Below are positions 2,740 through 36,800 of a stretch of 39,416 bases of DNA, one piece after another. The DNA comes from a virus. Its lineage: Duplodnaviria > Caudoviricetes. Both the position numbers and the translations under genes were made by a program. The notes beneath the pieces are model-generated. The model searched no databases and was not told where the DNA came from. It was given only the letters and a program-made list of their open reading frames with translations. The first letter of the stretch is position 1. The number at the start of each line of letters is the position of its first letter. The stretch spans positions 1 to 39,416 of the IMG/VR virus record IMGVR_UViG_3300042197_003621, one strand, 5' to 3'.

Positions 2740-3095
2740 TCAATCGAAGAGGGAGACTCAGTCGGCCGCGCAACGTCCCCAATCGTGTTGTTCGCGGACG
2801 GTCCGGCGGGCGTTGATGCAGGCGATGCGGAAGTCTTCAGGGTCCTTGGTGTAGCGGTCGATCGCCTCCCGGGCGTCGGCGACCAGTTGTACCCCAGCAA
2901 CGGGGTGATCCCGTCGATCGTGGTGCAGACCTGCCGGTAACGGTGCCGGAAGTAATGGTGTTCCATCCCGCTGTAGTGCAGTCGCCAATCCAGCAGGTTG
3001 GCGTAGATCCGGTGCTCCCAGAGCCGCTTGATCAGCCCGTGATGGATGGTGCCAAAGGCCCACCCGTTCTCGATGAAGAACAAAACGGAGTTCAT
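2740..3095 (-). pseudogene. Internally deleted GT-B (GT4-like) glycosyltransferase pseudogene
   Basis: N-part MNSVLFFIENGWAFGTIHHGLIKRLWEHRIYANLLDW... is coupled to the terminase stop by TGATG. It joins out of frame near 2885 to a GT-B-like C-terminus (AREAIDRYTKDPEDFRIACINARRTVREQHDWGRCAAD*VSLFD*) with an internal TGA where Trp is expected. Confidence 0.55.
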
Positions 3096-5086
3096 CAGTC
3101 CTTCATCATATCGGCCATATTGTGGATGTCGGTGTCGAACCCGTGCAGGTCGGACGCGCCGAACACGGAGTCGAAGCCCTGCCAGCCCATCGCCTCGCGG
3201 GGCGCGGGGTCCGTCCGCGTGTCCTTGGCCCTTGGCACGAGCGACGGCACCCGCATCCGGGCGACGTGGAGCATAATCAGGAACGAGTCGGCGCGGTCGG
3301 GAGAGGTCTCGCCGGTGCGGCCCTTGTAGGCGTCCTTGGCCTCGACCGATTGTTTCTTGCCGATCCCGACCTTCATCCCGCCCCGGCGCCCGGCCAGCTC
3401 CTCGCTGGTTTTTTGGTCGACGCCCCGGCCGATCCGCACGATGTCGTACTCGAAGAGTTTGGCCCCCGCCATCCACAGTTCGGTCGCGGTGCGGTCGTAG
3501 AGTTCCCGCGGGGTCTGCGTGTCCTCGTCGGCGACCTTCACGTCGCTGGGGCTGCCCGCGTACTCGACGCCGAGGATCGGCGCGGCGCCGTCGTCGGTCT
3601 CCGCCAGCGGCGCGACCTTGTCCTTCCACTGGCGGCGGATCACGTCGTGGACGCCCCGGCCCGTGCCCGTCTTGTCGATGCCAAAGTTCTCCGGTTTGAT
3701 GCCGAGTTGCCGGCAACGCGCCATATTCTCGTCGGCCACGTCCTGCGTGTCGCCGTGCGGCAGGATCGAGGTGCCGTCGGCTTGGATCTTGATCGCGGGC
3801 TCGGGCAGCTCGTGCCGCTCGCCCTTGTAGTCGACCCACGCGACGGCGCGGCCTACGCGGCCCAGCGTCATCGCCGGCAAGTCGCCGGTGAAGGCCGGGT
3901 CGGAGCCGGCGATCGTGACGGTGGGGCCGTCGAAGACCCACTCGCCCTCGGCGCGGCGGAGATGGTTCGAGTTGATGATCGTCGTCTGGACGCCGGTCTT
4001 GGGGAACCGGCCGTACACGTACGTGTAGACGTTCGGGTGCTGGTCGTTGCCGCCCGCCTGCGAGCGGATGATCTTCTGCACGCCCTCGTACGTGATCATA
4101 CGCGGGAAGATCGTCTTCTTGGACACCACGTTCTCGGTCCGCATCGCGTTGATCGAGATGACGTGCCAGCCGGTCTCCGACTCCCACTCCTCCTGATCGT
4201 CGGTGATCGAGTCCCAGCCGCCGACGGGTTTGCAGTTCAGACCGTACCGGGACCACTCGTCCTTCGGGTTGGCCGCGGCCATAATCTTGATGTGCTCGAC
4301 CGAGTTGTCGACCGACGAGAGCAGGTTGGGCGTCTCGTCGAAGATGTTGGCCGGGATCTCCTGCGCCTCGTCCAGCAGAATGCGGAGCCGCGAGTTGTCG
4401 CCGAACAGCGGGTGCGTCGGGCGGTTCTTGATCTTGGCGCCCTTCAGTTTGCCGCGGGACTTTGGCCCGCCCGGGATGACGAGGACGAAGATCCCCATAC
4501 CACGTTTCTTGTCGAGGGAGATGGACTCCGAGTCTACGTTGCCCGGCAGCGGCAGCACCGCCTCGGTGTGGAGACGCACGATGTCGGCGTAGAGGTTCTT
4601 CTCGACGTGATCCTGAGAGTTGGAGGCCACCTCGATGCGGGTCCACTCGGGGTCGAGCAACCAGTCAAGGACGCACCACGCCGAGGGGGTGAACGTCTTC
4701 CCCACCGAGCCGCAACCCATCACGTTGATCTGGTTCTTGGTGAAGAGCGCGCCCCACATCAGTTGCGCGGCCCGGGGCTCGGGCGTGAACGTCTTCGGGC
4801 CCCACAACACCAGCGCCGCGGCGACGTAGTCGCGGGCGTAGAGCAGCGAGTACACGTAGGCCCACGCCAGATCCATCATATCGGACCGGGTCTTCATCGG
4901 CCGGCGCAACGAGGCGTTGTTGGCGAGGTAGACCTTGAACGTGCGGTCCTTCAGCATCCGCTCCACCGCCTTCATCAGCGACGTGGGGTCTTCGGTCTCC
5001 CGGTGATGAAAGAGGTTCTGGTGGATGTAGCGCAGGTCGGCCCGGCGCGCCTTGTCGGGGATTATGACCGGCACGGTGATTCTCAA
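3095..5086 (-). CDS. terL: Terminase large subunit
   Basis: Walker A GCGSVGKT, Walker B ILLDEA, coupling motif AANP, RNase H-like nuclease acidic motifs GSDPA, GIDKTGTG and SPDRADS; 663 aa. Confidence 0.9.
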   Translation of the reverse strand: MRITVPVIIPDKARRADLRYIHQNLFHHRETEDPTSLMKAVERMLKDRTFKVYLANNASLRRPMKTRSDMMDLAWAYVYSLLYARDYVAAALVLWGPKTFTPEPRAAQLMWGALFTKNQINVMGCGSVGKTFTPSAWCVLDWLLDPEWTRIEVASNSQDHVEKNLYADIVRLHTEAVLPLPGNVDSESISLDKKRGMGIFVLVIPGGPKSRGKLKGAKIKNRPTHPLFGDNSRLRILLDEAQEIPANIFDETPNLLSSVDNSVEHIKIMAAANPKDEWSRYGLNCKPVGGWDSITDDQEEWESETGWHVISINAMRTENVVSKKTIFPRMITYEGVQKIIRSQAGGNDQHPNVYTYVYGRFPKTGVQTTIINSNHLRRAEGEWVFDGPTVTIAGSDPAFTGDLPAMTLGRVGRAVAWVDYKGERHELPEPAIKIQADGTSILPHGDTQDVADENMARCRQLGIKPENFGIDKTGTGRGVHDVIRRQWKDKVAPLAETDDGAAPILGVEYAGSPSDVKVADEDTQTPRELYDRTATELWMAGAKLFEYDIVRIGRGVDQKTSEELAGRRGGMKVGIGKKQSVEAKDAYKGRTGETSPDRADSFLIMLHVARMRVPSLVPRAKDTRTDPAPREAMGWQGFDSVFGASDLHGFDTDIHNMADMMKD

Positions 5087-5148
5087 TAACTTCTTTTACG
5101 TTGTCCTCAAGCCTTTATTGACCAGAACAATCCCGACCCCCTATTGCG
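5087..5148. promoter_or_regulatory. Divergent promoter region between terL and the structural operon
   Basis: AT-rich 62-nt gap between divergent genes with TTGACC at 5118-5123 on the + strand. Confidence 0.45.
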
Positions 5149-5298
5149 ATGCCATTTGAATCCAAAGCACAAGCCCGTTACCTTTTTGCGCGTGAGCCCA
5201 AGGTCGCCAAGCGTTGGGCCAAGGAGACGCCGAATATGAAGAAATTGCCGGAAAAGAAGGGTTCGCAAAGCGCCGCGGAGACGCGCCGAAAGAAGTGA
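5149..5298 (+). CDS. Conserved small basic phage protein (49 aa)
   Basis: MPFESKAQARYLFAREPKVAKRWAKETPNMKKLPEKK...; recognisable MPF.SKAQ...A.RW..ETP...LP pattern; GTGA overlap with the next gene. Absent from the ORF track, probably because of its size. Confidence 0.7.
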   Translation: MPFESKAQARYLFAREPKVAKRWAKETPNMKKLPEKKGSQSAAETRRKK

Positions 5299-10214: not shown

Positions 10215-11126
10215 GTGATCAACCTCGTCGAACTCCCCCAGAGCTACATCGACAAATACGGCCGGGAAAAAGTGACCGAGATCATCGGTCACGGGCCGGC
10301 GATGGTGTCGATGTGGCTCTCCCGAAAGCGGTTTCCGTTGGACGCCGTGCAGAAGCTGATCGAGTTCGATCCGTCGCCGCTGCACGCGGTCAAACCGTTG
10401 TACGCGAACCCGGAATCCGGGAAGAAGATGGTGATCTTGATGCCAATGAACGGGCCACCGGAGCCCGAGGTGATGGACGCCTTCGCCCGGTTGTACGATC
10501 CGCGGGAAATGGACTTTCACCGCGTCGCGTTCAACAACCTGTCGGTCGCCCGCAACGCCTTGGCCGGGAGATTCCTCCGCGGGCCGTGGGACTGGGCGCT
10601 CTGGTGGGACAGCGACACGATCCCGCCCTACGGCAACGCCGAGGCGTTCAAGAAACTGTGCCAGAACCCGAATATGCCGGACGTCTTCGCCGGCGTCCAC
10701 GCGATCTACCGGATGCTGGTCCACAAGAAGCCGTTCGTCAGCGCCTGCTACGTCGGGCGGAAGAAAGGCGCGCCACCGCAGTTCTTTACCGGCGACGCGG
10801 AGACCGCCCGGGCGATGGTCAAGCGAGGCCCGCGGGACGAGCTGCTGCAATGCGAGTGGACCGGGTTTGGTTTTGTCCTGACGCACCGCCGCGTCTTCGA
10901 GGACATCATCCGCACGCAGGGCGAGGAGATTCGCGTCAAGAATGACGGGCTCCGCGCCAAGTTCGGCTACGATCACGCGTTCTTCACCCCGACCGGGGTC
11001 GACATCCCCGGCGACGACATCCCGTTCTGCATCCGTGCCATCAAGGCGGGCCACAAGCCCGTGATGGATCTCTCCGTGTTCGCCGCCCACATCGGCAATC
11101 ACGCCTACACCTACGCCGACCTTTAA
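10215..11126 (+). CDS. GT2-like glycosyltransferase with N-terminal HTH-like segment
   Basis: ARNALA, WWDSD (DxD), TGFGFVLTHRRVFE and GDDIPFC...G...D......HIG are typical of phage GT-A proteins; residues about 5-50 resemble a Cro-like HTH. Confidence 0.7.
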   Translation: MINLVELPQSYIDKYGREKVTEIIGHGPAMVSMWLSRKRFPLDAVQKLIEFDPSPLHAVKPLYANPESGKKMVILMPMNGPPEPEVMDAFARLYDPREMDFHRVAFNNLSVARNALAGRFLRGPWDWALWWDSDTIPPYGNAEAFKKLCQNPNMPDVFAGVHAIYRMLVHKKPFVSACYVGRKKGAPPQFFTGDAETARAMVKRGPRDELLQCEWTGFGFVLTHRRVFEDIIRTQGEEIRVKNDGLRAKFGYDHAFFTPTGVDIPGDDIPFCIRAIKAGHKPVMDLSVFAAHIGNHAYTYADL

Positions 11127-12606: not shown

Positions 12607-12618
12607 GACAAAAAGGCA

Positions 12619-12648
12619 TTGACCGGAGGGGATAACGGAGTATCCCGT
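12619..12648 (+). promoter_or_regulatory. Putative promoter for the capsid gene
   Basis: TTGACC-N16-TATCCCGT, preceded by an A-tract. Confidence 0.45.
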
Positions 12649-12658
12649 GATCCCATCC

Positions 12659-12810
12659 GGGGGTTATTAGCGCGCAAGCGCCGGTCCGCTGCGAGAGCAG
12701 CACATCCGCCGGGGACGAACGGGTGTGTCGCAAGACCGAACAGGAGAGGGAACTACCCACCTTCGACCGGGTAAACCCGCCATTCGGCGGACAGTTCAAC
12801 CATAACCTCT
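12659..12810 (+). ncRNA. Candidate structured RNA / 5' leader of the major capsid gene
   Basis: 9-bp closing helix (12659-12667 with 12802-12810) enclosing GCGC-GCAA-GCGC, GCUGC-GAGA-GCAGC, GUC-GCAA-GAC and other stems. Confidence 0.55.
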
Positions 12811-12817
12811 TTTCACA

Positions 12818-14075: not shown

Positions 14076-14113
14076 AGCCACCCCAAGGACATCCCTTGGG
14101 GTGGCTCCCCTTT
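14076..14113 (+). terminator. Strong hairpin after the capsid gene (leaky terminator or stabiliser)
   Basis: Perfect 13-bp inverted repeat AGCCACCCCAAGG / CCTTGGGGTGGCT with a 5-nt loop, followed only by CCCCTTT. Confidence 0.55.
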
Positions 14114-14133: not shown

Positions 14134-15228
14134 ATGTCCTGCGCGGGTGCCACTCAATGTCTGCCTCCGAAGGCCACGCTTCTGTTTTTTCAAGGGATCA
14201 CGGGACCGGTTGGCCCCGTAGGCCCCGCGGGCGCCACTGGCCCGCAAGGACCGGCGGGAGGTCCCGTTGGTGGGACCGGCCCCATTGGGCCGACCGGCGC
14301 AACCGGTCCTAGTATCGTCGGCGCTTCCGGGCCCCAAGGCCCGTCGGGCCAGCTCTGCGTTTTCCGCGGGGCGTACGCGGTCACCACCCGGTACTACTTC
14401 AACGCGACGCGTCGCGACGTGGTGATCCACAACAACACTTACTGGGTCGCGACCAACCCAGCCAAGGACGCGCAAGTCAACTGGGGTACTCCCGGATCGA
14501 GTTCCGACTGGGCCAATTTTGGCGCGGTGTTCTCGATGATCGCGACCGGGCTCCTGTTGACGCAGAACGCGGTCATCACGGTCAGCCTGACCCTTGGCCA
14601 GACCGGGTCGAACATCGGGTTCATCCAGTCGGCCAACTACATTGCCGGCGTCAGCGGGTTCCTGATCCGCGCCGACGGGTTTGCGGAGTTCAACGACGTG
14701 CTGGTGCGGGGCAACATCTCGACCACGTCGGAGAAATTTAACCCGGACGACGTCGTTAACACGATGCCGCCGATCGGGTATGCGGCTTACGTCATCCCGC
14801 AGATCGACAACGCGACGATCCCGGAGAATCCGACAATTCTTTACGAGACCGACAACAGTTTGATCTTCTACGGATGGCAGAGTGGGGCCACCGGATTTGT
14901 GACCAACCGGTTCGGCAATTCGACCCAGCCGTTCATTGTCAACCTGCAAGGCAACGCGAACAACAGTTCTGGAAGTGCCCAACTGTTCTACATCGAACTT
15001 TACTATCGAACCCGGGACAACGGAGGTCCTTGGGGGTCTTGGCAAACAATCGGCCTGCCTGCTTACGTTACTTCGGACATCGTCGGACAGAGTTTTCAGA
15101 AAACCAATTTCGAGCTGTTGTCCCTGACCGGCACTGAGGACGTGCAGTTCGCGGCGGCATTCTCCAAGGGCGTGGGTGGGTCGGTGATTATGGAAGGCGC
15201 GCAACTGTCGGTTCAGGCCCCGAACTAA
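14134..15228 (+). CDS. Virion fibre/decoration protein with short collagen-like repeat
   Basis: N-terminal G-X-Y repeats ([13 protein letters not shown]), a [28 protein letters not shown] tail-protein-type motif and a beta-rich C-terminus. Confidence 0.7.
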
Positions 15229-15229
15229 A

Positions 15230-17266
15230 ATGTCCAACAACTGCAACTCCTGCGAGCCGGTCCAGTGGTGTACTCCTCCGAATTGGAATACCGATTTTCC
15301 GCAATTGGTCGGAGCAACGGGGGCCACTGGTCCAGCAGGTGCCACCGGCGCCGGGGTTACAGGAGCGACTGGAGCTATCCCCCCGTGGGTGTTCGCGTTT
15401 TACTTCACCGGCAGCGCGATTGACGAAGCGGTTTTTGGTTATTTCAACACGCAAGTTCAGGCGGAAATAGTCGCCATCTCCATTGCCGCTCAAACAGCGC
15501 CCAGTGGGTCAGACCTCACCATCGATTTGGTCGATTCTCTCGGTTTCGAGCTTGGACGTATCGCCACTCTTTCGGCGGGGAGTAATTACTCAAAAACTTC
15601 GGTTTTGCCTTACACGGTCGCGGCCAACGATTTTGTCCGGGCCAAGATCAAGTCCGTAGGCAGTATCGACCCGGGCGGATATCTTTGCGTCACGCTCTTT
15701 TTCTCTGCGGCTGGTACACCCGGCCCTACTGGTGCCACGGGCCCTCAAGGCCCTGCGGGTGGCCCCACCGGGCCAACTGGTGCGACCGGTCCCGCGGGTG
15801 CCACGGGCGCTGCGGGTAGCCCCGGTGGTGCCACGGGTGCCACGGGTGCGGTAGGATCCACGGGTGCCGCGGGCGCAACTGGAGCAGTTGGTGTAACGGG
15901 CGCAACGGGTCCTCAAGGCATTACGGGTGCGACTGGTGTTCAAGGGCTGACCGGTGCGACGGGTGCTTCGGGCGCTCGTGGCGCTACAGGCGCTACCGGT
16001 GTCGGAACGACAGGTGCGACGGGCGTTGCCGGTTCAACCGGACCAACGGGCGCTGGAGTTACCGGAGCGACCGGTGTTGCCGGTTCAACGGGTGTAACAG
16101 GCCCCAGCGGATCTTTGGGTGCTACGGGAGCAACAGGTGTCGCTGGTCCGACCGGCGTTACCGGAGCTACCGGGCCCGCGGGAGCAACGGGTGTGGGCGT
16201 TACTGGTGCAACGGGTGTAGCCGGCTCAACGGGTGCTACCGGCTCTGTCGGCGCAACCGGAGCGGGAGTTACTGGAGCTACTGGAGTGCAAGGCCCTACC
16301 GGTTCTCAAGGGGCTACCGGAGCCACGGGCGCAGGCGTTACCGGTGCAACGGGTGTGGCTGGCCCAACAGGCGCTATCGGCGTCACGGGAGCTACGGGTC
16401 CTACGGGCGCCGGAGCCACTGGTCCTACCGGACCCCAAGGGGCTACCGGTGTTACAACCGCTCCGAACATTCAGTTTTTTACCGCCGGAGGAACTTGGAC
16501 CAAACCCTCCAACGCCAAGACGACTTTTGTGTACCTTGTCGGCGGCGGTGGCGGTGGTGGTTCCGGGCGCCGCGGCGCCTCGGCCACAGACCGGTTCGGT
16601 GGCGCGGGTGGCAGCGGCGGCGGTGCCACGTTCCTGTCTTTGCCTTCCTCCATCCTTGGGGCCACGGAACCCATCGGCGTTGGTGCCGGCGGTGCCGGCG
16701 GCGCGGCCATCACGTTGGACGATACCAACGGGAACGTCGGTGTTGATGGCGGTGACTCGTACTTTGGTGGTTGGGCCGTCGCCTTGGGCGGCAAGGGCGG
16801 CGAGGGCGGCACCGCGACCGATAGTATCGCCTACAGCGGCGGCAATAGTCAGGCGGTAGGCGGTGCCGGCGGTGGCACCAACACGGTTACCGCTGGAGCC
16901 ACGTCCAAGCAGGCTGCGGCCGGTGGTGGCAAGGGCGCCGACCTCGACAGCACCGACACCCTTGTTTACGGCGGCAACGGAGGTGATGCGGGAGTTGGTA
17001 CCCGGTTCACCCCCTTGGCCGGAGGTTCCACCAACCCGAATCCGGGTCCGGGCGCAAACGGTGACGACGCCGTCACCAACGAACCGCAAGGCGGTGCCGG
17101 CGGCGGTGGCGGCGGCACGGATCTCGCCACCACGGGCGGAGACGGTGGCACCGGCGGGTCCTATGGCGGCGGTGGCGGCGGTGGCGCCGCCAGCGAAAAC
17201 ACGTTCGACTCAGGCAAAGGTGGTGATGGCGCCGCGGGAATCGCAATCGTCATAACCTACTTCTAA
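15230..17266 (+). CDS. Collagen-like fibre protein with glycine-rich C-terminal domain
   Basis: Long GATG(P/A/V)T repeat at about 15720-16450, then [11 protein letters not shown]...[11 protein letters not shown]...GIAIVITYF glycine-rich domain. Confidence 0.8.
15720..16450 (+). repeat. Collagen-type coding repeat (9/18-nt periodicity)
   Basis: Degenerate ggNgcNacN triplet repeats encoding G-A-T / G-P-T. Confidence 0.85.
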
Positions 17267-17267
17267 C

Positions 17268-17471
17268 ATGCCGGATAACATCTATCCAGACGACCCGAAC
17301 GGCACAGATTGGGTCCGGCTCGGCCAATGGTTGGAGGCTTGGTATTACTCCCTCACTTCAACACCCCCTAGCGGCGACCCGTTGCTTGCCCCCATCCGTC
17401 AGGAAGACACCGAGGGCGTCAAGTTTGCCAAATGGCAGCGTTGGCTCAAAGCGATTCAACAAGTTTCCTAA
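17268..17471 (+). CDS. Small virion-associated protein
   Basis: 67 aa, tightly spaced in the operon; shares the DTEG......QRWLK motif with the next gene. Confidence 0.65.
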   Translation: MPDNIYPDDPNGTDWVRLGQWLEAWYYSLTSTPPSGDPLLAPIRQEDTEGVKFAKWQRWLKAIQQVS

Positions 17472-17483
17472 CCATCGACCTCC

Positions 17484-17933
17484 ATGCCTGACCCACTTCT
17501 ACGCGATCTGACCGTTTACGACACCGAGGGCACGCGCTGGGCGGTCATCCAGCGTTGGCTCAAGGACGTCGTCGACACGATCAACGCCGGCCACCCGGAG
17601 ACCAAGGGCCGCGATTTCGCGACCATGATCTTCACGGGATCGGCGATCTTGAATAACACGTTTGGGTACTTCAAGTGCAGCACCACGACGAAGTGGACCC
17701 GGGCGCAATTGTTCTGTCAGACCGTCCCGACCGGCTCGGCGATCATCGTCACGTTTGTCAACGACGCCGGCACAAGCCTTGGCGTGACCGCGACCGTGGC
17801 TGCTGGTCAAGATCGGCAGGAGACGGTTTTCGGATCCACTTTGACTTTGTCGCCCGGCGACATTGTTCGATGCAAGATCACGCAGGTTGGATCCACTACC
17901 CCCGGCGGGTACATCACGGTAAACCTGATGTAA
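17484..17933 (+). CDS. Small virion protein with beta-sandwich domain paralogous to part of 15230..17266
   Basis: FTGSAI...FGYF...QT.P.GS...VR.KI..VGS..PGGY..V.L is shared with the 678-aa protein. Confidence 0.7.
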   Translation: MPDPLLRDLTVYDTEGTRWAVIQRWLKDVVDTINAGHPETKGRDFATMIFTGSAILNNTFGYFKCSTTTKWTRAQLFCQTVPTGSAIIVTFVNDAGTSLGVTATVAAGQDRQETVFGSTLTLSPGDIVRCKITQVGSTTPGGYITVNLM

Positions 17934-17941
17934 AATGATTC

Positions 17942-20900
17942 ATGCCCGACGCGATCCAATTCACGATCCCGCCGCTCACCGGCGCAACTGGCGCAGTTTC
18001 ATCCGGAGGAACTACCGGAGCCACTGGCGCGACGGGACCGTCGGGACTGCCGGGACGTAACGGGGTCAACGGAGGCAACGGTGCTACGGGGCCTGCGGGT
18101 TATACGGGCGCCACGGGTCCGGCGGGCAGTCCGGGAGGCGCAACTGGCGCCACTGGTACAGCCGGCACCGCGGGTGCAACGGGTGCAACAGGCGCCGGAG
18201 TTACTGGTGCCACTGGTGCAACGGGAGCAGTAGGCGCCACCGGACCGGCGGGTGGCCCTTCCGGCCCCACTGGTGCAAGTGGCGCAACGGGTGCAACAGG
18301 TCCCGCGGGTGCCACCGGCCCTTCCGGTGTGAATGGCCCAACCGGTGCCACCGGCCCGCAAGGTGCCACCGGCACCGGCGGGGCTCTTGGCAACTACGGG
18401 TCGTTTTACGACACGACCGACCAAAGCGCCGCCAGCACCACGACCGCCTACGCCATCAACATCGGTTCCACCGCGGAAGCCAACGGGGTGTCAATCGCGT
18501 CCGGCAACCAAGTCACGTTCGCTGCGGCCGGCACGTACAATTTCCAGTACTCGATCCAGTTCAAGAACGCTGACAACCAGACTCACGCCGTAAACGTGTG
18601 GCTGCGGAAGAACGGTTCAGATGTTGCTGACAGCAACAGCCGGTACTCAGTCCCCAACCGGCACGGCAGCACCGACGGCCAACTCATCGCGGCGATCAAC
18701 TACGTCCTGACGCTCGCCGCATCGGACTACCTGCAACTTGTTTGGTCCACCCAAAATACGTCGGTGACGATCGACACGTTCGCCGCCGGCGTCTCGCCGA
18801 CCGTTCCAGTCACGCCCAGCGTCATCGTCACCGCGCAGCAGGTGATGTACACGCAAGCCGGAGCCACCGGCGCGGCAGGAGCAACGGGCGCCACGGGCGC
18901 AGGAGTTACGGGAGCAACGGGCGCGACGGGTGCTACCGGCGCCACGGGCCCGGCGGGCACCGGCACGACAGGAGCGACGGGTGCCGCTGGTCCTACCGGA
19001 GCCACCGGCCCTGCGGGAGCCACCGGAGCCGGTGTGACTGGAGCAACCGGCATTCAAGGCCCTACCGGCGCAACTGGCCCGGTGGGAGCTACAGGTGCGG
19101 GAGTAACTGGAGCTACAGGCATTCAAGGCCCTACCGGCGCAACGGGTCCGGCGGGCGCCACAGGTGCGGGAGTAACTGGTGCTACCGGAGTTCAAGGCGC
19201 CACGGGACCGACCGGTGCTCAAGGTGCCACGGGCCCCACGGGCGTGGGCATTACCGGAGCCACCGGCATTCAAGGTTCAACCGGCCCCACTGGCATTGGA
19301 ACGACGGGGGCAACAGGAGCTACCGGAGTCACGGGCATTCAAGGAGCTACCGGACCAACCGGTGCCGAAGGTGTTACCGGCGTGCAAGGCGCTACCGGCC
19401 CTACCGGCACGACGTTTACCGCCAAGACAACCCTTGGCCCTGCGCGTCGGCGTTATCCGGATGGCACTACCGGAGCCACGACTGAGAACGTGTTTTATCA
19501 GGACGTTTTCAACGTCAAGGACTACGGAGCCTACGGCAACGGCACCAACGACGACACCGCGTCGATCTCCGCGGCTATCGATGCTGCTCTCGCGGCGGCT
19601 AACGGTGGCGCGGTCTACTTCCCGTCAGGTCAGTATCTGGTAAACTCCCGTATCACCAAAACGGTCACCAAAAGCCTGTACTTTTTTGGCGACGACGAGA
19701 GTTCTACCATCGTATCCAATAACACGTCCGGGTTGTTCGACCTCACGACTGCGGCTAATGAGACCATCTGCATTGGGTTCTCCAGTCTGGAAATGGTCTC
19801 TCAGCAAACCGCTGGAACCGCGATCTCTGCCACTTTCCTTCCCGCAAACAACTCCCATCGGTATAGTAGGTTTTACGCTCAAAGTCTCACAATAGGCAAA
19901 GTCGACAGCGGCTCCCAAATCAACCGGTTTACCCGGGGGCTTGTCCTGAACTGCGCGTCCAACGCGATGTTGGACAACTGTATGATGGACGGGAATTGCC
20001 CGTCTTGGAGGAGAGAAACGAGCACCCACAACGCCGGGTCTTTGGTAATCGGTACCCAGTATACGATCCTGACGGTTGGGACCACCAACTGGGTTAGTAT
20101 TGGAGCGTCGTCTAATACCGTGGGGGTCGTTTTTACGGCTACCGGAATCGGGAGCGGTACCGGTACGGCCACCGGTTTGGCTCCGGTTACTTCCGGAATT
20201 GGGGCCCCTGTTTCGCCTGCAACGGTAGTAAAGGCGCTGTACCTTAATACCTCCAACAACTACGTCTATTTTTGGACCGGAGGTGGGTGGTCGTTAATCG
20301 CCAACATTACCGGGTATGCGAACCCGCTTGCGGTCATCAGCTCGGCTTTGCCGTTCCGCACTCTCGGGACCTACTTGTTGGAGTTTACCGGTACGATGTC
20401 GGTAAACAGCGCCGTTACAAACTGCGGGTTCAATTTTGCGGAAATCGGAGCTTCCGTTCAGATATACCAAGAAGGGCTCAACCTGACCAACGTCGCTATG
20501 GTCGACGTTTTGTATGGGTGCTACTTTGCCAGTAATAGTGCTACCCGCAGCACGTACTTGACCCTCACCGGGGTTCATATTGATGCACGAGGGTCGACGG
20601 ACCAAACGGCAGGGACTGGGGGAGCCGCGGTACGTCTGAACAATGTATCGTGTATGCTGATGACGGACTCGCTGTTGATCTCGGATCAAGGCAAGGCCGT
20701 TTTGTGGATGCAAGGGGTACACGAATCCTGCGTGGTGGGTAACCAAATTTACGGTCCTGCTGATGGGATACTTATCGAGAATGGGGCCAGTTCTTCCACT
20801 TCGTGGTCGAATGTAATCACCGGAAACAATTTCCGGAATGCAAGTAACACCAACATCGCAGTAGTTGCCGGGACCCAGATCATCGCGAACAGTAATACCG

Positions 20901-21406
20901 AGAGCAACGGCACCACCGGAGGTAACCTGATCATTTCCGATTCAGGGACGAACAATCAGATTTGGCGGACCGTGATGGTGGGGGTGAACTCCACCCTATA
21001 CCTGACTGCCATTCAGCTTTACACGGATGGGTCGGAGGCAGCCGTTTCGTGGGACGCGGAGAGGTACACCGGGGGTTTTGGGATTTGGAATGCAGGCACC
21101 CCTACCCGCATCAATGTCCCTAGTGGGGCCCGTCGAGTGCGGGTGAGTGCCGGTTTTTACTGGGAGGCCAGTACCAGTGGGAGGTTTGTCGCCAAGATTA
21201 AGGATAACGGCGGAAACTCTTGGGCACGCGATAACCGGTTCGGATCTTCCACCAGTGAGACTAATAGTGGGACGATGATCACTCCGGTCATCGACATTGC
21301 TGCCACGAGCATCACCTATTTTGAATTGGTCCTGACCCAGACCACCGGAGGCGATCTCGACCTGCAAGCCTCTCAAGCCACGTACTTCACACTGGAGGTC
21401 CTTTAA
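17942..21406 (+). CDS. Collagen-like tail fibre/tailspike with pectate-lyase-like beta-helix
   Basis: Two G-X-T tracts flank a C1q/BclA-CTD-like domain ([10 protein letters not shown]...PSVIVT), followed by [21 protein letters not shown]...[13 protein letters not shown] (Pectate_lyase_3-type start) and Asn-rich beta-helix repeats. Confidence 0.8.
18859..19410 (+). repeat. Collagen-type coding repeat with near-tandem 69-nt units
   Basis: [19 protein letters not shown](V/A)GAT repeated at about 19026-19200 within a longer G-X-T tract. Confidence 0.8.
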
Positions 21407-21408
21407 TT

Positions 21409-22104
21409 ATGAGCTGCGGATGCGGAAACAATAACTGCAACGGCGGCTGCGGCTGCAACGACTGCAACCAGCCGGGGAACCTGTGCTCCCCGCCCGTGCC
21501 CGTCGTCACGATCGTCGGCGGTCCCGTCGGTCCCACCGGCGCGACCGGCCCCAGCGGCCCCGCTGGGTTCGGTGTGACCGGTCCGACCGGCGCCACCGGG
21601 GCGCAGGGCATCCCCGGCCCGATCGGGGCCAACGGCGCCACCGGTGCCACCGGCGTTGCCGGCGCGAGCGGGGCTCCGACCGCGTTGTTCACCGGCGTCT
21701 ACTGGGACCCCGCGTCGGCCACGACCGACCTTGCCAACCTGCAAGGCTCCCGGGTGCTGGACTTCGGCACGGTCAACTTCTCCAGCGGGGACTACCTCTT
21801 CAGCCTGAAGATGCAGATCGGCTGGAACGCCGGCGCGGTCGGCCCGAACAACCTGAACGGGTCGGTCGACTTTATGGACGGCACTACGTTGCGCCAGACG
21901 TTCAAGTGGGGCCGCTCCAAGAGCGAGGCGGCCGGCTATCAGTATGGTGTCGCCGAGTCCTACGATTTCTGGTTCATCACCACCGTGACGAACGCCCAGA
22001 GCCTGCGTCTGGTTTGTTCCAACCAGTTTTACCTTCTCGGCGCCCAGCTTGTGGCCTTCCCGCTCCCCACCAACACGATTACCTCCCCCGGATTCATCCT
22101 CTGA
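21409..22104 (+). CDS. Collagen-like virion protein with Cys-rich N-terminus
   Basis: [19 protein letters not shown]..., a short G-X-Y tract and a beta-rich C-domain. Confidence 0.75.
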
Positions 22105-28923: not shown

Positions 28924-30894
28924 ATGCCTGCTTTTATCATCACCGATCCGAATACCGGTCGTCGTATCCGGGTTCAGGGCGCGTCTCAGCCGAGCAACGA
29001 AGACATTCAGGGCATTTTTGCCCAGATTGACGCTGGAAGCGCGCCTGCCAGTCCGGCTCCGGCTCCGGCTCCGGCCCCTGCCGCTCCGCGATCTGATCGG
29101 GCCAAAGCCGACACGCTTGGGGAGTTCACCACCAAGCCCGAGACCGTGCCGGAGTCCAGCCCCGGGCTCGGAGTTATGGCGGCCGAGATGGGCACCAGCG
29201 TCGCGGGCGGTGCGCTCGGTCAGACCATTGGCGCCGCTGGCGGTCCCGCGGGTATGGCGGTGGGTGGAGCTATTGGTTCCGGTATCGCCAACATCGCCAA
29301 TCAACTGATGCGGATGCGGGCCGATCCGAACTACAAATTCAAGTTTGGAGAGTTGATGGCGGAGGTCGGCACCGGAGCCATTCCGGGTGGTCCGCTCCTC
29401 AAGGGCGGTGCTAGGACGCTCGCTTGGCAAGGCGTCAAACAAGCCGCAGGCGGTGTGGCTGCTGGCAACATCCAGTCCGTGATGGACGAGGGCCGGCTCC
29501 AAACAGCCAAGGAAAACCTGCTTTCAGGGGCGCTCCCGGCCGTCGCGGGCGCTGGCGCTCAAAAACTGTTGTCGGGCACGCCAGAGGCGGTTGCGGCAGC
29601 CACCAAGGCGATGCGGAAGCCTCCACAGGAGGTGAAAACCCTTCAGGAAGCTCAGAAGCTCGGCCTGAAGGCCCTGCCGTCGGAGATCAAGAAAGGCGGC
29701 GTCAGCACCCCGGGAGCCACGTCGGAAGCCAGCCCCGAAGGGTTTTTCCGCACACAACTGGAGAGTCTGGGCGGCGCCACCGCATCCAAGCGCCAGATTC
29801 AACTGGAAAACCAGCAGGCCATCAACGACGCGGTCAAAAAGCAGCTTGGGGTCAAGGGCGACGAACTCAGCCCCGCCGCGCTCAAAAACGTCCGCGTCAA
29901 GCAGGGCGAAGTGTACGGGGAGTTCGCCAGTATGGCCGAGACGGCCCGGCCGCAATTGGCGGCGTTGGACCAGCAGCGCAAAAGTATCGAACTTCTCGAC
30001 CCCAATTACGCGCGCTCCAAGGGCATCGTCATCGCGGACGAGTTGCAGAAGTTTGACGCGGCCAACGCGGCGAAACGTGCTGAATTGGAGACCGCGGTCC
30101 GGTCCGACCCGCTGGAGCTGCGGAAAATCCGCGGCGAAGCCCAAGAGGCGATGGACCGGTACTACGCGTCCGGCGGCAAAGATGTGAACGCGCAAACGAA
30201 AGCGTTCGAGCTCCGCGATCAGGCTACCAAAATCGAGGAGGCGATGGAACAAGCCGCGGCCAACGCCGGCAAACCGCAGTTGGCCAAGAAGCTGGTCAAC
30301 GCTCGCCGGATGATCGCCCGTACTTACGCGGCGGAGGACGCGCTCAATCCCGGCAATTTTAACATCGACCCGGACAAGCTGGGTCAGGCCGCACTTCGCG
30401 GCGTTCCGTTGGATGGCAATCTGGCCACCATAGCCAATTTCCGCAACGCCTACCCGCAGAGCGTCCGCGAGGCTTCCAAGGTGGCGGAACCGGGCGTCAG
30501 TCACGCTGCCACCATTCTGGCAGGCGGCGGCACGCTTTTGGGCACCAAAGACCCGGTTCTCGCGGGAGCAGCCGCGGTAGCGATGCCTTTGGCCCGCGAG
30601 GCTGCGCGAGGTTTCCTCACGTCGGATGTCGCTCAAAAACGAGCCACCGACGCCCTGTTGGAGCGAACTGTTGGTCGCAAGATCAACGTGCCCACCGAGG
30701 TCCGACTTGGCGAATCCGCCACCCGTATGACCGGTCAGCAGGCCGCGAAGGCCGCGTCGGACGAGACGCCGGACGTTATCCGCGAAGATGTGGAGGCGTT
30801 GCAGGAAGACCCGCAGGGTATGAAGGCCGAGTTCGAGAAAAAGTACGGTAAAGGCTCGTCCGCGAAGTATCTGTTCCGCAAAAAAGCCGACTGA
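28924..30894 (+). CDS. Internal virion / DNA ejection protein (large)
   Basis: Gly/Ala-zipper hydrophobic segments (AGGALGQTIGAAGGPAGMAVGGAIGSG) and coiled coils; synteny fits. Confidence 0.6.
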   Translation: MPAFIITDPNTGRRIRVQGASQPSNEDIQGIFAQIDAGSAPASPAPAPAPAPAAPRSDRAKADTLGEFTTKPETVPESSPGLGVMAAEMGTSVAGGALGQTIGAAGGPAGMAVGGAIGSGIANIANQLMRMRADPNYKFKFGELMAEVGTGAIPGGPLLKGGARTLAWQGVKQAAGGVAAGNIQSVMDEGRLQTAKENLLSGALPAVAGAGAQKLLSGTPEAVAAATKAMRKPPQEVKTLQEAQKLGLKALPSEIKKGGVSTPGATSEASPEGFFRTQLESLGGATASKRQIQLENQQAINDAVKKQLGVKGDELSPAALKNVRVKQGEVYGEFASMAETARPQLAALDQQRKSIELLDPNYARSKGIVIADELQKFDAANAAKRAELETAVRSDPLELRKIRGEAQEAMDRYYASGGKDVNAQTKAFELRDQATKIEEAMEQAAANAGKPQLAKKLVNARRMIARTYAAEDALNPGNFNIDPDKLGQAALRGVPLDGNLATIANFRNAYPQSVREASKVAEPGVSHAATILAGGGTLLGTKDPVLAGAAAVAMPLAREAARGFLTSDVAQKRATDALLERTVGRKINVPTEVRLGESATRMTGQQAAKAASDETPDVIREDVEALQEDPQGMKAEFEKKYGKGSSAKYLFRKKAD

Positions 30895-33800
30895 TGGACT
30901 ACCTGATCACCAAGGAGCCCGAGAAAACCGACTACCTGATCGAGCCCGAGCCGGAGACTCCGGCCGAGCCGCAGGGGCTGATGTCCAAAGCCAAGGACAC
31001 GGCGGTCTCCTTTGGCATTGGTGCCAACAGCCTGCTCCAGATGGCGGGCGATCTGTACGGGCTGGCCACGGGCGATATGGGCAACGTGGTCTCCCAGCAG
31101 GCGCGGGAGAACATCCAATACCTCCAGCAGAGCAAGAGCCCGGAACTGCGGCAGGCCGAGGAGACGCGACGCAAGGCGATCGAGGCGGACGAGGACGAAC
31201 TGGGCAAGGCCCTGAGCTACGTTCGCCAGACGGTCACCAACCCCTCGTTGCTTTCCAGCGCGCTGGCCGAACAAGTCCCCAACTTGGTGGGAACGGGTGG
31301 TGCAGGTGCCGTCGCCAAAGCCGGCGCCGAAAAGGTCTTGTTCAAGACGGCGGCCGATCAGGCCGCCAAGCGTCTGGCGGCCAAGAAGGCTGCCCAGATC
31401 GGTACGGGTGCCGCGGTGGCCGCAGGTGCCGGGATGCAGGGCACCGACGTTGGCTCAGACCTGTACGACGAGACCGTTTCGGCGCTCGACAAGGTCACGG
31501 ACGAGCAGGCGCTCTCCATCCCTGAGATCGCCAGTTTGGTGGAGGAAAAAGGTGCCACTCTCGACGAGGCCAAGACCGCGTTCGCCCTGATGCTGGGGCG
31601 CGAGGCGTTTGCGTTGGGGGCCACGATCTCCGCCGGCGCGCAGATGCTGCCCGGTGGTCGCACCATCGAGCGTTCTTTTGTCGGCCGGCAGGTCGGAGGC
31701 CGTTTGGCTGGAGCGATTGGCGGCGGATTGGGCGAGGCCGCCAGCGAGGCGGTGGAGGAAGGCGGCAGCCGGGTGGCGGCAAATCTTCTGGCGCGGCGTT
31801 TTGAGCCTGAGCGTCCTTTGGCCAAGGGCGTTGGCGAAGCCGTGGGTCAGGCGGCGCTGGTCGGGGGTATCCCCGGCGCCACGTTTGGTGCCGCATCTTC
31901 CCGCCCCACACCGCAGCCGGCGCCGGAGGGTGAAACTACGGCGGGCAAAACCGGAGAAGCTCCGGCGTCGGTTGCGACCAAGAGCACCCTTGCTGGCGCT
32001 CCTGAGGTGGCGCTGGAGAGTTCCGAGGGCCTGACGCCCGAGCAGTTCTACGCGGCCGTCAACATTCGCCAAGCTCGGCTGATGGGCGGACAGCCCGATC
32101 CCGAGGACATCCGGATTGCCGGCGAAGTGCCGCTGCCCAAGGTGCAGATCGATCCGGAGAAGGCCAACCAAGCGATCGAGCAGGCCCAAGCCGCGTTGCA
32201 GGAATGGGCCGATTCCACGGCAAACGCGCCGCAGAATATCCGGATCATCTTCGACCCGGAGTTGCTGCATAACGGCTATGGCGTGCAGGGGTATTACAGC
32301 CCTGACGGCAGCATCTTCATCAACGCCGCGTTCGTCGCGCCGGAGAACGTCGGCAAGATCGCCAGCCACGAATGGGCCCACTCCACGCTGGCCACGCCCG
32401 AGGGTCAGCAGGCGTTCGCCGATTTTGTGCAGCGGGAAATCCCGCAGGGCGAACTGGACGCGCTGGCCGCCCGTTACGGCACGCAGGACCGCCGGGTGCT
32501 GCTGGAGGAATGGATCGCCGAGAATCAGGAGAAGGCCCCCGGGGTGATCGAGCGCATCGTCGCCCGCATCCGTGAGTGGCTCGCCAGCTTCAACATCGTC
32601 GATCTGAGCGACGCCGAGGTTGCGGACATTATGCTCCGCACCCTGCGCCAGCAGGCCGAGGGTCGCATCCAGCCCGACACGTACGAGGCGATGCAGCCCG
32701 CCGAGGGCGAGCGATTCAGCCTCTCGGCGGAGCCGAAGCGCATCTCTGGTGTGATGGCCAGCCCCAGCATCACCGACATCAATTACGACCGGGCGAAGCG
32801 CAATCTGACCTCGGCCAATCAGGCCCGTTTCAAGAGTCAGATTTCCGAATACGCCCCTGAGGCCGAGATTTTCGACGCGGTGGGCGATTGGGCCGACGGA
32901 TCGGAAAACTCCGTTGCGGCCATTTTCCAAGACCGCAAGTCGTCCGACGAGCTCCAGCGTCTCGCGGCTCAAGTTGGCCTCGCCGGCGACCAGAAGGCCG
33001 TCCTCTGGTGGCGCACCGAGCCCGAGGGCGCCGACGCGATCCACGAGATGAGCTGGCCCAAGACCGTCTCGATGGACGAGGCGCGTCAGGCGATGATCGA
33101 CGTGGGTCTGGAGAACCGCACGCTCATCCAGACTCCCGAAGGCGTGCGCGGATTCGTGTTTGACCAAGGGCGTCAGAATCTCAATAAGATCGAGGCACTC
33201 AATGAACACGAAACCCAACCTTCTCTCGAATCCAGCCCCGCAGCAGGAGACTTCCTCGGCAGTTGGACAAGCCGCGCCGAGGGCCGACGGGCCTACCGGC
33301 GAGTACTGGGATCGACTCCGCAAGCTCAAGCGGGTGCGGGTGAGCTACGATCTGGGGAGGTCGGTGGGGTCGGGGATCGTGGTGAGCCAGAAACCCGATT
33401 CAGCCTGACCGAACGGGTCGCGCAAGGGCGCGACACCGTGCTGGCGGCCGAGGCTCAGAAGCTGAAGCGCGGCGAGACGACGCCGGCGAAGTACGCCCGC
33501 AAGGTGGAGCAGAGGATGCCGCTCCGTCCGTTTGACGAGGTTCCTGAGCCTGCTACGGGCGAGGACATCCTCCGTGGGCTCGGCAACCGGATGGCCGGCG
33601 AAACGCTCAAGCGCGAGCTGAAGGCCAATCCTGAGGACATCGAGGGCCAGCAGGTCGAGGCGCGTCTGGACATCCCGTCCTACGAGGACGCGAACGTCTG
33701 GACCGTCACCCTGCACAACCCCCGCGAACGCGCTGGGGCTGCCGGCAAGGTGCTGGCGTACACGCCCACGGCGATCCTGCGCGACGTGACCTTTACGGTC

Positions 33801-36800
33801 AACGAGACCGCGGCGATGAACGTCGCCGCTGGTGCCCGCAAAAGCACCTTCGCGACGATGGACGGCACCTACGTGCCGGCGACCGCCCGAAGCGCCTACG
33901 AGCAGGCCGTGGAGGCCAAGGAGAGCGGTGACTGGGTCGAGATCGGGATGAACCCGATCCGGCACTCCTACTTCTACGACAAGGCCGACCAGCGCCCGGT
34001 TGTCTCGGCCGACGAGGTCATCCAAGTCGGCGGTCTGGTGCTGGGCCGCGGCGTGCAGTACGGCGAGAAGCCGGATTACAAGTTCAGCCTAGCCCAGACC
34101 AAGACGCCGGAGTTTCAGAATTGGTTTGGTGATTCCCAGATCGTGGACGCGGATGGGAATCCGCAGGTGATGTACCACGGAACAGCTTTCCGTCCTGACC
34201 CAAGGAAACCCGAATTTCCGAAAGTTACATTTACTAGGGATTTTACTGAATTTAGGCCGAACGAACGCGGACTGATTTTTACTTCGCTTGATCCAAAATT
34301 CTCCGACAAATTTGCAATGGAGTATGCCGGATATGGAGGCTCATACAAAGAGGGCGCTCGGGTGTATCCGGTATTTGTTAAAACCGAAAACCCGTTTGAT
34401 TACGAAAATCCTCTCCATATCAAAAAACTTTTTGGGGATAAAAACGAATTAAACACTCTAGATTTGACCGTTGGTATTGTTTCGCGTGGCGAAGTGATGG
34501 ATGGAAGTTACGCTGCTATCGAGGCTTTAAGCCGTAAAATTAAAGAGGCAGGGTTTGATGGTCTCTACGTTTTTGAACGCGGCATTAAAAATCTCGCGGT
34601 TTTCAGTTCTGACCAACTGACTTCAGCCACCGGCAACGTCGGCGCATTCGGCCAACGCCCTCTCACCGCCGAGGAGCGCGAGCGTCTGGGCGTGACGGAG
34701 GAAGAGGCGGCTGAAGGCCAGAAGCGTGGCGACATCCGGATGAGTCTGGCCCGGGGCGGCACTCGCTTCAGTCTGGAAGAAACCCGTCGGACCCGAATCC
34801 AGCCGGCGGGGTTCCCGCCCGACCCGTTGGGCTTCTTCTCCCCGCTCCAGCGCGCCATCGCCGAGATGCCGGACCGCGGGTTCGCCGACTACGTCGCGAC
34901 GCCGGCGGTGCCGGGGCGCAGCTTCCCGGCCCGCACGATCCGCGACAAGGAGGGCAACGTCATCAAGGAGATCCCGGCACGCACCGAGCCGGACAAGCCG
35001 GAGCGCGTCGTGACCGCCGCGGAGCAGCTCCGCAGCCACCTTGAGAAGTTCAACGTGAAGAAGGAGGAGCTGGAGGACATCCGGGACACCGGCGGTCAAA
35101 CCTTCGCCGACTGGATCGCGCAGAACCCCAACGCGACCAAGGAGGAGGTCGCGCAGTTTGTGGCCGAGAATCAGGTCTCCGTGGAGGAGAACGTGCTTGA
35201 GCCACAGGGCAAGTATCAGATCGTTCAGGACGGAGAGGTCATCGATATGCTCTCTTTCGACACCGAGGAGCAAGCGGCGGCTTACATCGACCAGTCGATC
35301 CAAGACTACACGTCAGAATTCGAGATCGACGGGGACCAACTGATCGATCCCAGCGGGGACGTCGTCTCTGAAATCACGAAGGACGAGGATAAGGACCTGT
35401 ATTATGTTGGGTATCCCGGCGCTCCCAAAACTGATTCCCGCTTGTACTACACGTTGAACGGGGCCCGGCGCGCCCTCCAACAAGAATTGGAGGGGATCGC
35501 TTTTGGGGAAATTAGGAGGTATCGGGTACAGGAAACGGCTTCCGCCACTTTTGAGGAGTACACGTTGCCGGGCGGTAGGAACTACCGCGAGACCGTCCTG
35601 ACCTTGCCCAAAGGTGCCCGCGGCTCCGGATTTTTCTCAACCCATTTCCGGGACACTCCCAACTACCTCGCGCACGTTCGACTCAAGGACCGGGTCACGC
35701 CCTCCGGTGATCCCGTTCTCTTCGTCGAGGAGATTCAGAGCGACCTCCACCAGAAGGCCCGGGATATCGGCTACAAGGGACTGGAGAGCCCGCAACAGAA
35801 GGCCGAACGACTCAAGAAACTCGAACAGGTCCGAGACGAGCTGGAGTTAAATGGCACCCAGATAGATCGCAGCGATAATCAAATTGCACGGCTACAAGTG
35901 GAGATTAACAAGTCCCGCGATCAGGGGTTAGACGCGGAGCGTTTGAACGAGCAACTGGAGGTTGAGTACAAGATCAACGAGAACCTTTCCCGCATCCGGG
36001 CGAGGCTTATGGATCAGGCGGATGAATTCTCGCTGGCGGCAAACCCGAGAGGTGTCCCCAACGCGCCGTTCAAGAAGACTTGGGCCGAGATGGCCTTCAA
36101 GTACGTGCTGTCCGAGGCCGCCCGGAAGGGCGACCAGTACCTCGCTTGGACCACCGGCGAGCAGCAGAACAGACGCTACCCCGAATTGTCTGCGGTGGTG
36201 CGATCCGTCGGATGGGAAAGCCGTCTTCCGGGCTTTGGGGCCGACCCCGGCGAGAAGTTCCTCAGAATCCGTATGGTCAATGAGACGGCCCCACTTGAGT
36301 TAATCGTGGAACCGGAGGGGACTGTCCGTCCCTTCAGCAGGGCGGATGTGCGGGCGCAGCGGTTTGAAGGGGCGACCCTGACCGAGATGGTCGGCGCCGA
36401 CTTGGCCAACCAGATTCGCAACAAGGACAGCGGGGATGTTTTTTTGACGGAGGACCTCGTCATCGACGAGCAGGGTATGGTTGGTTTCTACGACGAGATC
36501 ATCCCGCAGTTCGCCGCCAAGTACCTGAAGAAGTACGGCGTCAAACCGGAGATGATCAGCGTCGTGCTCCGGCCGCAGCGCAAGGAGCCCAGCCCGCTCA
36601 ACATCCCCGGCGAGGAAGACGCCGAGGTGGAGGTGCCGCAGAGCACCGCCAAGGTCAACGCGGTGCGGATCACGCCGGAGATGCGTGAGGACTTCGTCGG
36701 CCGCGGCCAGCCGCGCTACAGCCTGAGCGCCACCAAACCGCGGAACGTCAGCACCGTGGGCGTCACCCGCGAGGCGATGGGGTTGCCGCTGGAAGGCCCG

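Follow-up and report, generated by a model that had tools for sequence, protein, structure and literature searches.

A conserved capsid-gene leader in uncultured phages is predicted to form two tandem pseudoknots near the start of its mRNA

What kind of RNA precedes the capsid gene of this phage, and what might it do for the capsid mRNA? The window analysed here is the whole virus record of 39,416 bases, whose gene content points to a short-tailed phage. A sequence-only reading had placed a multibranch structured RNA, rich in GNRA loops, at 12659-12817, directly upstream of a gene that it called the major capsid gene, and had proposed a translational enhancer, a switch or a new ncRNA class. 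The ORF that follows the leader (Table 1) falls in no family of Pfam, PHROG or NCBIfam. Its AlphaFold model (pLDDT 68.9) gave 281 Foldseek matches at E ≤ 0.001, the best being the phage N4 capsid (E 1.7e-10); since the model resembles HK97-fold capsids, the capsid label was right. A sequence search of solved structures returned only a spurious dehydrogenase match. The capsid family is large and uncultured, with 149 proteins found in one search and 348 IMG/VR loci by broad alignment; the best 80 of these 348 loci entered our collection and 268 remained outside. Among 50,697 GenBank phages, the capsid, terminase-like and tail proteins had no relative, and the leader DNA gave only chance short matches. 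Genome scans for a host found none, except for two short MAG contigs with a capsid relative, which are likely misbinned; these contigs (L181 and L182; 2.1 and 2.7 kb, one titled Microbacteriaceae) are too short for a host call. In the contig of L005 and L040 (3001-3279), a stop cuts the capsid frame short at 92 codons, although the match continues in one segment, reflecting either an assembly error or an internal stop.

The rest of the window holds several features of its own. On the minus strand, opposite to the virion genes, a 663-aa ORF (3095-5086) carries a Walker-A-like GCGSVGKT motif and is probably the large terminase; it has no match in Pfam, PHROG, NCBIfam or GenBank phages. A serine resolvase/invertase (PF00239) is encoded at 1863-2489, also on the minus strand. 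Four collagen-like fibre genes, one with a pectate-lyase-like domain, lie directly 3' of the capsid gene (14134-22104, plus strand). A 2332-aa polyvalent protein (30894-37892, plus strand) combines an ADP-ribosyltransferase domain (PF18760), an L5 gp82 domain and an endolysin-like region; its N-terminus resembles a virion RNA polymerase family, and the protein is likely injected. Glycosyltransferase-like genes are found at 10215-11126 and 37856-39064.

To describe the leader across the family, we assembled 103 deduplicated leaders, that of this phage included, from loci whose start could be assigned and that had 200 nt or more upstream; truncated, duplicate and start-less loci were left out. 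Thirty of them form a core group (capsid identity of at least 45%) and 73 are distant (below 45%). A MAFFT alignment of 24 core leaders, unfitted to any structure, was used for an RNAalifold consensus, which contained a helix P1 (12658-64/12704-11, with a bulged G) and the pairing GGGU 12721-24/ACCC 12755-58, and in which the helices of the sequence-only reading were absent. The full model pairs in 86.7% of the cells of the 24 core rows, and 17 of its 31 pairs change on both sides. No pairing as high was reached in 500 shuffles, a statistic that ignores relatedness among the leaders, and slid controls gave 36-51%. The pair 12661/12707 is kept in 24/24 rows in five forms (GC, AU, CG, UA and GU), with at least four independent two-sided changes on the capsid tree, as counted by eye with several near branches weakly supported. 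Across the 13 close relatives, 428 of the 429 cells in the eight model helices are paired, and 11 changes are two-sided. The leader is a conserved, covarying sequence that is predicted to form two tandem pseudoknots near the likely start of the capsid mRNA; the structured RNA is real as judged by covariation, and its conserved fold is predicted to differ from the multibranch one.

Table 1. Predicted features of the capsid gene and its leader; hairpin cell counts refer to the 13 close relatives.
Feature	Position	Strand	Basis or remark
Predicted capsid promoter: A-tract 12610-14, -35 TTGACC 12619-24, weak -10-like TATCCC 12641-46	12610..12646	+	Conserved motif
Helix P1 of domain 1: P1a 12657-60/12709-12, bulged G12708, P1b 12661-64/12704-07	12657..12712	+	RNAalifold
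P2 hairpin, GNRA loop	12670..12681	+	52/52 cells paired; loops GCAA, GAAA, GUAA
Conserved CG 12682-83 and PK1 (GUCC 12684-87/GGAC 12713-16, adjoining the P1 3' strand)	12682..12716	+	Covariation
P3 hairpin with GAGA loop; in distant members it varies or is missing	12688..12701	+	64/65 cells paired, 3 two-sided
Domain 2, PK2: GGGU 12721-24/ACCC 12755-58 in the 9-nt P5 loop	12721..12764	+	RNAalifold
P4 GNRA hairpin, inserted in the domain 2 linker	12727..12736	+	39/39 cells paired
P5 stem of domain 2	12746-50/12760-64	+	One A (12759) between PK2 strand and P5
P6, variable spacer hairpin, outside the conserved core	12777..12790	+	7/13 fully paired, 4 two-sided cells
G-poor initiation region lacking a Shine-Dalgarno	12791..12817	+	In the alternative fold, 12802-10 could be paired to the 5' arm
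Major capsid protein, HK97 fold, 412 aa	12818..14056	+	AlphaFold model and Foldseek
13-bp hairpin, weak U-tract, terminator-like or 3' protector	14076..14106	+	Predicted fold

Both domains share one strand order (a, long loop, b, short loop, a', no more than a few nucleotides, b'), in which the 3' part of a hairpin loop pairs with a strand lying upstream. In the usual H-type knot the third loop is the long one, so the strand order of the leader is a different one. Support for pseudoknot pairing in this 5' UTR is by covariation, with compensatory changes in P1, PK1, PK2 and P5. In the 24 core rows, two-sided changes occur in 3 of the 4 PK1 pairs; most rows give PK1 good support, and it is weak or ambiguous in four core leaders (L016, L050, L014 and L061). 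Its variants include GCUC/GAGC and CCCC/GGGG and, by hand-written patterns, GCGC/GCGC, GUUC/GAAC and GGCCC/GGGCC. PK2 is paired in 96.9% of the cells and reads GGGU/ACCC in 25 of 26 parsed core leaders; AUCC is a variant, with UGGU/AUCA and GGGU/GCCC added by hand-written patterns. Because PK2 hardly varies within the core group, what supports it there is chiefly conservation. A descriptor of the fold parsed both domains in 26 of the 30 core leaders, and hand-written patterns made after inspection bring the fit to 29/30, leaving one degenerate leader (L044) without the fold. A first, stricter descriptor had matched 9/30 core and 24/73 distant leaders and had missed this phage's own leader. The final tandem descriptor was loosened after the leaders had been viewed; therefore the weight is carried by the shuffle and coding controls and not by the hit rate. 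Scanning viral contigs for an exact 22-nt motif yielded 9 matches, all of them capsid leaders already in the set.

How, then, does the conserved fold relate to the multibranch one? All the complementarities listed for the latter are present in the sequence where they had been placed, and its folding energy stands out from shuffles (-63.1 kcal/mol, z -2.75, 1/200 shuffles as good). It is the ViennaRNA minimum for this phage, but the relatives conserve the double pseudoknot instead, and the covariation that had been named as a check was found, and is strong, for that fold. What carries over are the three GNRA hairpins, whose loops are GNRA in 39/39 cases with the stems paired as in Table 1, and, loosely, the CCGCC/GGCGG hairpin (P6). 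The other helices fared worse in the 13 close relatives: the closing helix GGGGGUUAU/AUAACCUCU pairs in 101/117 cells and is complete in 4/13, and CACAUCCG/CGGGUGUG pairs in 99/104 cells and is complete in 8/13, neither with any two-sided change. The pairings GUCCGC/GCGGAC, CCGGUC/GACCGG and CGGG/CCCG are complete in only 4/13, 5/13 and 3/13 of these relatives, respectively. The element also needs new bounds, starting at 12657 and with a conserved core that ends near 12764; in contigs of one relative, which are probably DNA, likeness to this phage begins at 12657 as well.

The two folds could be the two states of a conformational switch, in which the pseudoknot fold frees the start region, a strand-swapped fold masks positions -16 to -8, and temperature, a ligand or a protein toggles between them. 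The masked fold is indeed the predicted minimum in this phage, the duplicated GGGU/AYCC strands would permit the swap, and 86% of the masking-duplex cells pair in the 13 close relatives. Yet the masking duplex exceeds shuffles (p ≤ 0.05) in only 8 of 26 leaders, including three weak cases from near relatives, and is absent in the other 18; the masking helix shows no compensatory change. The competing helix CACAUCC/GGGUGUG is paired in 84.9% of cells with 3 two-sided cells, and its key position is only C-G, U-G or a mismatch. Most distant leaders have modules with different helices, which makes the swap unavailable to them, and no conserved expression platform or terminator is present in the leader. 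We therefore consider a switch improbable; if there is one, it would be in the subclade of this phage. Under the nearest-neighbour model, the alternative fold of this phage has -63.6 kcal/mol, compared with -47.4 for the nested part of the pseudoknot fold, in which the knot helices are uncounted. For transcripts that end at 12712-20 the predicted fold is P1; therefore, co-transcriptional folding could favour the knot.

We then looked at the distant leaders, in which the fold takes a smaller form. Two compact modules with the same strand order, set back to back, were found in 40 of the 73, an arrangement matched by 2 of 730 shuffles and by 1 of 365 coding tiles. Without the rule that an unpaired YUA follows the first helix, the tandem is found in 46/73 distant leaders versus 17/365 controls; the YUA is present in 35 and 39 of 46 modules, compared with 4 of 34 in shuffles. 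Module 1 comes in 22 helix sequences and 35 inner stems across the 40 leaders, and the module 2 helix is GGCC/GGCC in 23 of them, with 11 forms overall. Each compact module has only 8-11 pairs. The RNA family thus ranges in size from modules of about 25 nt to the elaborated 108-nt form of this phage. In the other 33 of the 73 distant leaders, the descriptor found no tandem. A covariance model built from the 24 core leaders finds held-out core members and no compact distant leader; with no profile match between them, the kinship of the two forms is suggested by agreement in gene, position, strand order and YUA. By eye, five leaders (L078, L081, L083, L084 and L087) form a third variant, with 6-8 bp stems and a 4-nt third loop in the first knot, which is followed by a GGCG/CGCC module.

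Each of the five whole relatives examined has a single copy of the element, at its capsid gene: the best-scoring tandem lies there in 3/3 compact-form genomes, and each of two core-type genomes has one model match. Further copies in these relatives and in this phage amounted to lower-scoring descriptor matches only. One such match adjacent to a promoter was inspected and sits inside a gene. A free structural or packaging RNA of the phi29 pRNA type, released from the leader, might account for the link to a head gene; the 4-nt loop/strand complements, including the palindromic GGCC of many distant members, could pair between molecules. However, no leader terminator separates the element from the AUG (by a scan in this phage and by eye in relatives), and the genome carries a probable terminase gene, making this the least credible of the readings considered here.

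Does the element belong to the start of the transcript or to the start of translation? An upstream promoter had been predicted; its A-tract and TTGAC are conserved in relatives, although a strict sigma-70 scan did not call it. The A/T-tract plus TTGAC pattern used in our promoter script has this site as its sole plus-strand match in the window, and sigma-70 geometry would put +1 at about 12654-55. A second promoter-like site, TTGACC-18 nt-TATTGC, is found at 5118-5151 at the head of the plus-strand block, with an ATG one base past its second hexamer; no structured leader was seen there. The distance from the first T of TTGAC to the first helix is 35-39 nt in 26/26 parsed core leaders and 33-37 nt in 24 of the 29 motif-bearing distant tandem leaders, the remaining five having 5, 9, 29, 44 and 50 nt; the motif is absent from 11 of the 40 distant tandem leaders. 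By sigma-70 geometry, such spacing puts the first helix at about +1 to +4. The distance from the last helix to the AUG, in contrast, is variable, at 51-90 nt in core leaders (51-64 nt in 22/26) and 50-135 nt in distant ones. Fixed promoter spacing, variable AUG spacing, independence of a Shine-Dalgarno (SD) motif and one copy per genome together point to the front of a dedicated capsid transcript, and not to the ribosome site, as the probable place of the element.

The lack of an SD motif before the capsid AUG had been noted, and it is indeed absent; it is, however, general in this phage, where an SD-like motif precedes only 2 of 20 genes. Among the leaders, such a motif is found in 1/30 core, 27/73 distant and 18/40 distant tandem members, and the core leaders have a G content of 4% at -15 to -1. 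The idea of a translational enhancer that replaces the SD is weakened by the 18/40 and by the 50-135 nt between element and AUG. Many distant members (L090-L169) carry AGAAAG(G)-type ribosome sites at -20 to -4, whereas the group of this phage is G-poor and SD-less; these contrasting sites hint at different hosts within one capsid family. The element had also been said to fill the largest intergenic gap, and its 211 bp are the largest in the plus-strand block 5214-37892, but the claim needs three small ORFs to be counted. Beyond the gene, a hairpin with a U-tract stands in 61 of 98 relatives; the hairpin of the window itself fails the U-tract rule.

Two further readings bear on this 5' position. 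A self-cleaving ribozyme or processing signal could give the mRNA a defined, protected 5' end, and the double-pseudoknot architecture with conserved unpaired bases recalls small ribozymes. With the first helix predicted at about +1, little would be left to cleave off; there is no Rfam ribozyme match, and a repeated small module with free stems lacks a single catalytic core, so that we find this reading very unlikely. In a reading modelled on phage HK022, the nascent leader would bind RNA polymerase and suppress pausing or termination through the 25-kb virion gene block. Like putL (PMC9378689), the leader has two structured units directly 3' of a phage promoter that heads a long gene block, here a same-strand block from 12818 to 37892. 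But the put sites are two stem-loops on early operons, which bind the beta' zinc-binding domain to suppress termination, with pseudoknots unmentioned in PMC9378689, while here pseudoknots are predicted, module 1 is highly free in sequence and a terminator-like hairpin, often with 6-7 U, usually follows the first gene. A put-like function thus seems to us to have only a slim chance.

The reading that we tentatively favour, at slightly under an even chance, is that the leader acts without protein as a 5'-end shield and an obstacle to RNase scanning, making the capsid mRNA long-lived. Transcription would start 0-3 nt before the first helix and leave the 5' triphosphate paired or nearly so, and a paired 5' end would be a poor substrate for RppH-type enzymes and RNase J. 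Once the end had been converted or clipped, each pseudoknot would stand as a coaxial block in the path of a scanning RNase E or a 5'-3' exonuclease, with the second domain as a back-up; plain hairpins would not block. The pseudoknot fold would also hold the GC-rich leader apart from the open initiation region, and the hairpin 3' of the gene would protect the 3' end, giving a unit like that of T7 gene 10 for the most abundant virion protein. Several enzymatic precedents are available. RNase E begins its scanning at a monophosphorylated 5' end; it gets past orthogonal stem-loops, and pseudoknots hinder it to a degree that scales with their coaxial pairs (PMC9943677), which would explain the retention of knots in place of hairpins. 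Moreover, Bacillus subtilis RppH acts only when two or more nucleotides at the 5' end are unpaired (PMC3997798), RNase J1 is stopped by a viral xrRNA (PMC5760640), and the guanidine-III pseudoknot stabilises its mRNA as a scanning obstacle (PMC12186494). From the sequence comparisons we infer that a shield is favoured by the position tied to the 5' end, the indifference to the mode of initiation, the topology kept while the sequence varies and the hairpin 3' of the gene in 61/98. On the other side, the 8-11 pairs of the compact modules sit at the weak end of the obstacles tested (PMC9943677), the nearest-neighbour model prefers the alternative fold of this phage by 16 kcal/mol with the knot helices uncounted, and 2-3 unpaired 5' nucleotides are predicted here, so RppH may not be fully excluded.

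A generic RNase E obstacle should also care little about sequence (PMC9943677). The unpaired YUA and the near-invariant second helix go beyond this need and suggest a specific 3D fold or a partner. The two modules could accordingly be a protein-binding platform, either for S1/30S as an enhancer or for the phage capsid or scaffold protein in autogenous control, as in the T4 gene 32 operator. Tandem sites would suit a dimer or cooperative binding, and S1 is reported to act on pseudoknots (PMC7038950). The T4/T2/RB69 gene 32 leader likewise holds a phage mRNA pseudoknot about 60 nt upstream of the gene, followed by a weakly structured region, and its T4 version nucleates gp32 binding at 67 nt upstream of the start (PMC3014915), compared with the 51-64 nt of most core leaders. 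Yet the gene 32 leader has a single pseudoknot, to which the ssDNA-binding product of that gene attaches (PMC3014915), whereas two knots fixed to a promoter precede a capsid gene here, and the downstream gene encodes an HK97-fold capsid instead of a single-strand nucleic-acid binding repressor. The AUG spacing of 50-135 nt includes unrelated hairpins, the promoter spacing is the fixed one, the element is present with or without an SD, and no candidate binding protein was identified. We consider a protein platform doubtful.

The shield reading brings the leader close to several known systems. Guanidine-III and other RNase E obstacles (PMC9943677; PMC12186494) share with it a pseudoknot that lies in a 5' UTR of bacterial type, ahead of the initiation region, as well as the proposed mode; compared with guanidine-III, the leader is predicted to have two tandem knots from about +1, a 1-nt third loop and a long first loop. 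Flaviviral xrRNAs (PMC5760640), which close a ring around the 5' strand and thereby halt a 5'-3' exonuclease, are also built of tandem pseudoknotted units, with the 5' strand entering at a helix junction, and domain 1 similarly combines a multiway junction and a knot at the level of secondary structure; xrRNAs, however, sit in 3' UTRs of eukaryotic RNA viruses, and the element here is a phage 5' leader. In a bolder and, in our judgement, unlikely version, the pseudoknots of unusual strand order would form an 'RNA cap', with the first nucleotides buried at a helix junction and the 5' strand encircled, as the first natural counterpart of xrRNAs in the bacterial world. Such a cap would stand in tandem across hundreds of uncultured phages, perhaps with convergent forms in other phage families, and protect capsid mRNA during the breakdown of host RNA.

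The T7 gene 10 unit consists of a promoter, a structured leader, the capsid gene and T-phi, with a 5' hairpin, a strong SD and a phage polymerase. The unit described here resembles it in setting a dedicated promoter, a structured leader and a terminator around the capsid gene, and differs in its tandem pseudoknots, host-type TTGAC promoter and frequent lack of an SD. As for earlier descriptions, the 15 release of the Rfam covariance models gave no match at the gathering score in the window and six relatives (best E-values 9.3 and 4.5, the latter outside the leader). A literature search, in which subscription papers were sparsely covered, found no published description of this leader. Fremin et al. 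2023 (PMC10690425) and the phage cis motifs of Rfam 15 likewise place structured RNA upstream of a phage structural gene, but the Fremin candidates average 67 nt and the leader has no Rfam match; the supplement files compared contain neither the motif nor four of the contig numbers, and a partial model may be present in the alignments of that article. The proposal of a new ncRNA class in cis to the capsid gene is borne out by the strong covariation, the lack of an Rfam match and the tie to the capsid promoter. The family is real and apparently uncatalogued, and would belong among structured 5' leaders with pseudoknots, where its function is a proposal. The double-pseudoknot fold, the compact form found family-wide and the anchoring to the promoter are new.

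A phage infection yields more capsid protein than any other product, and little is known of how its mRNA stays stable. The leaders described here provide a defined RNA family with dozens of natural variants. If the shield holds, its modules would be compact, portable mRNA stabilisers; if a partner binds the modules instead, they would reveal a new regulatory interaction in phages.
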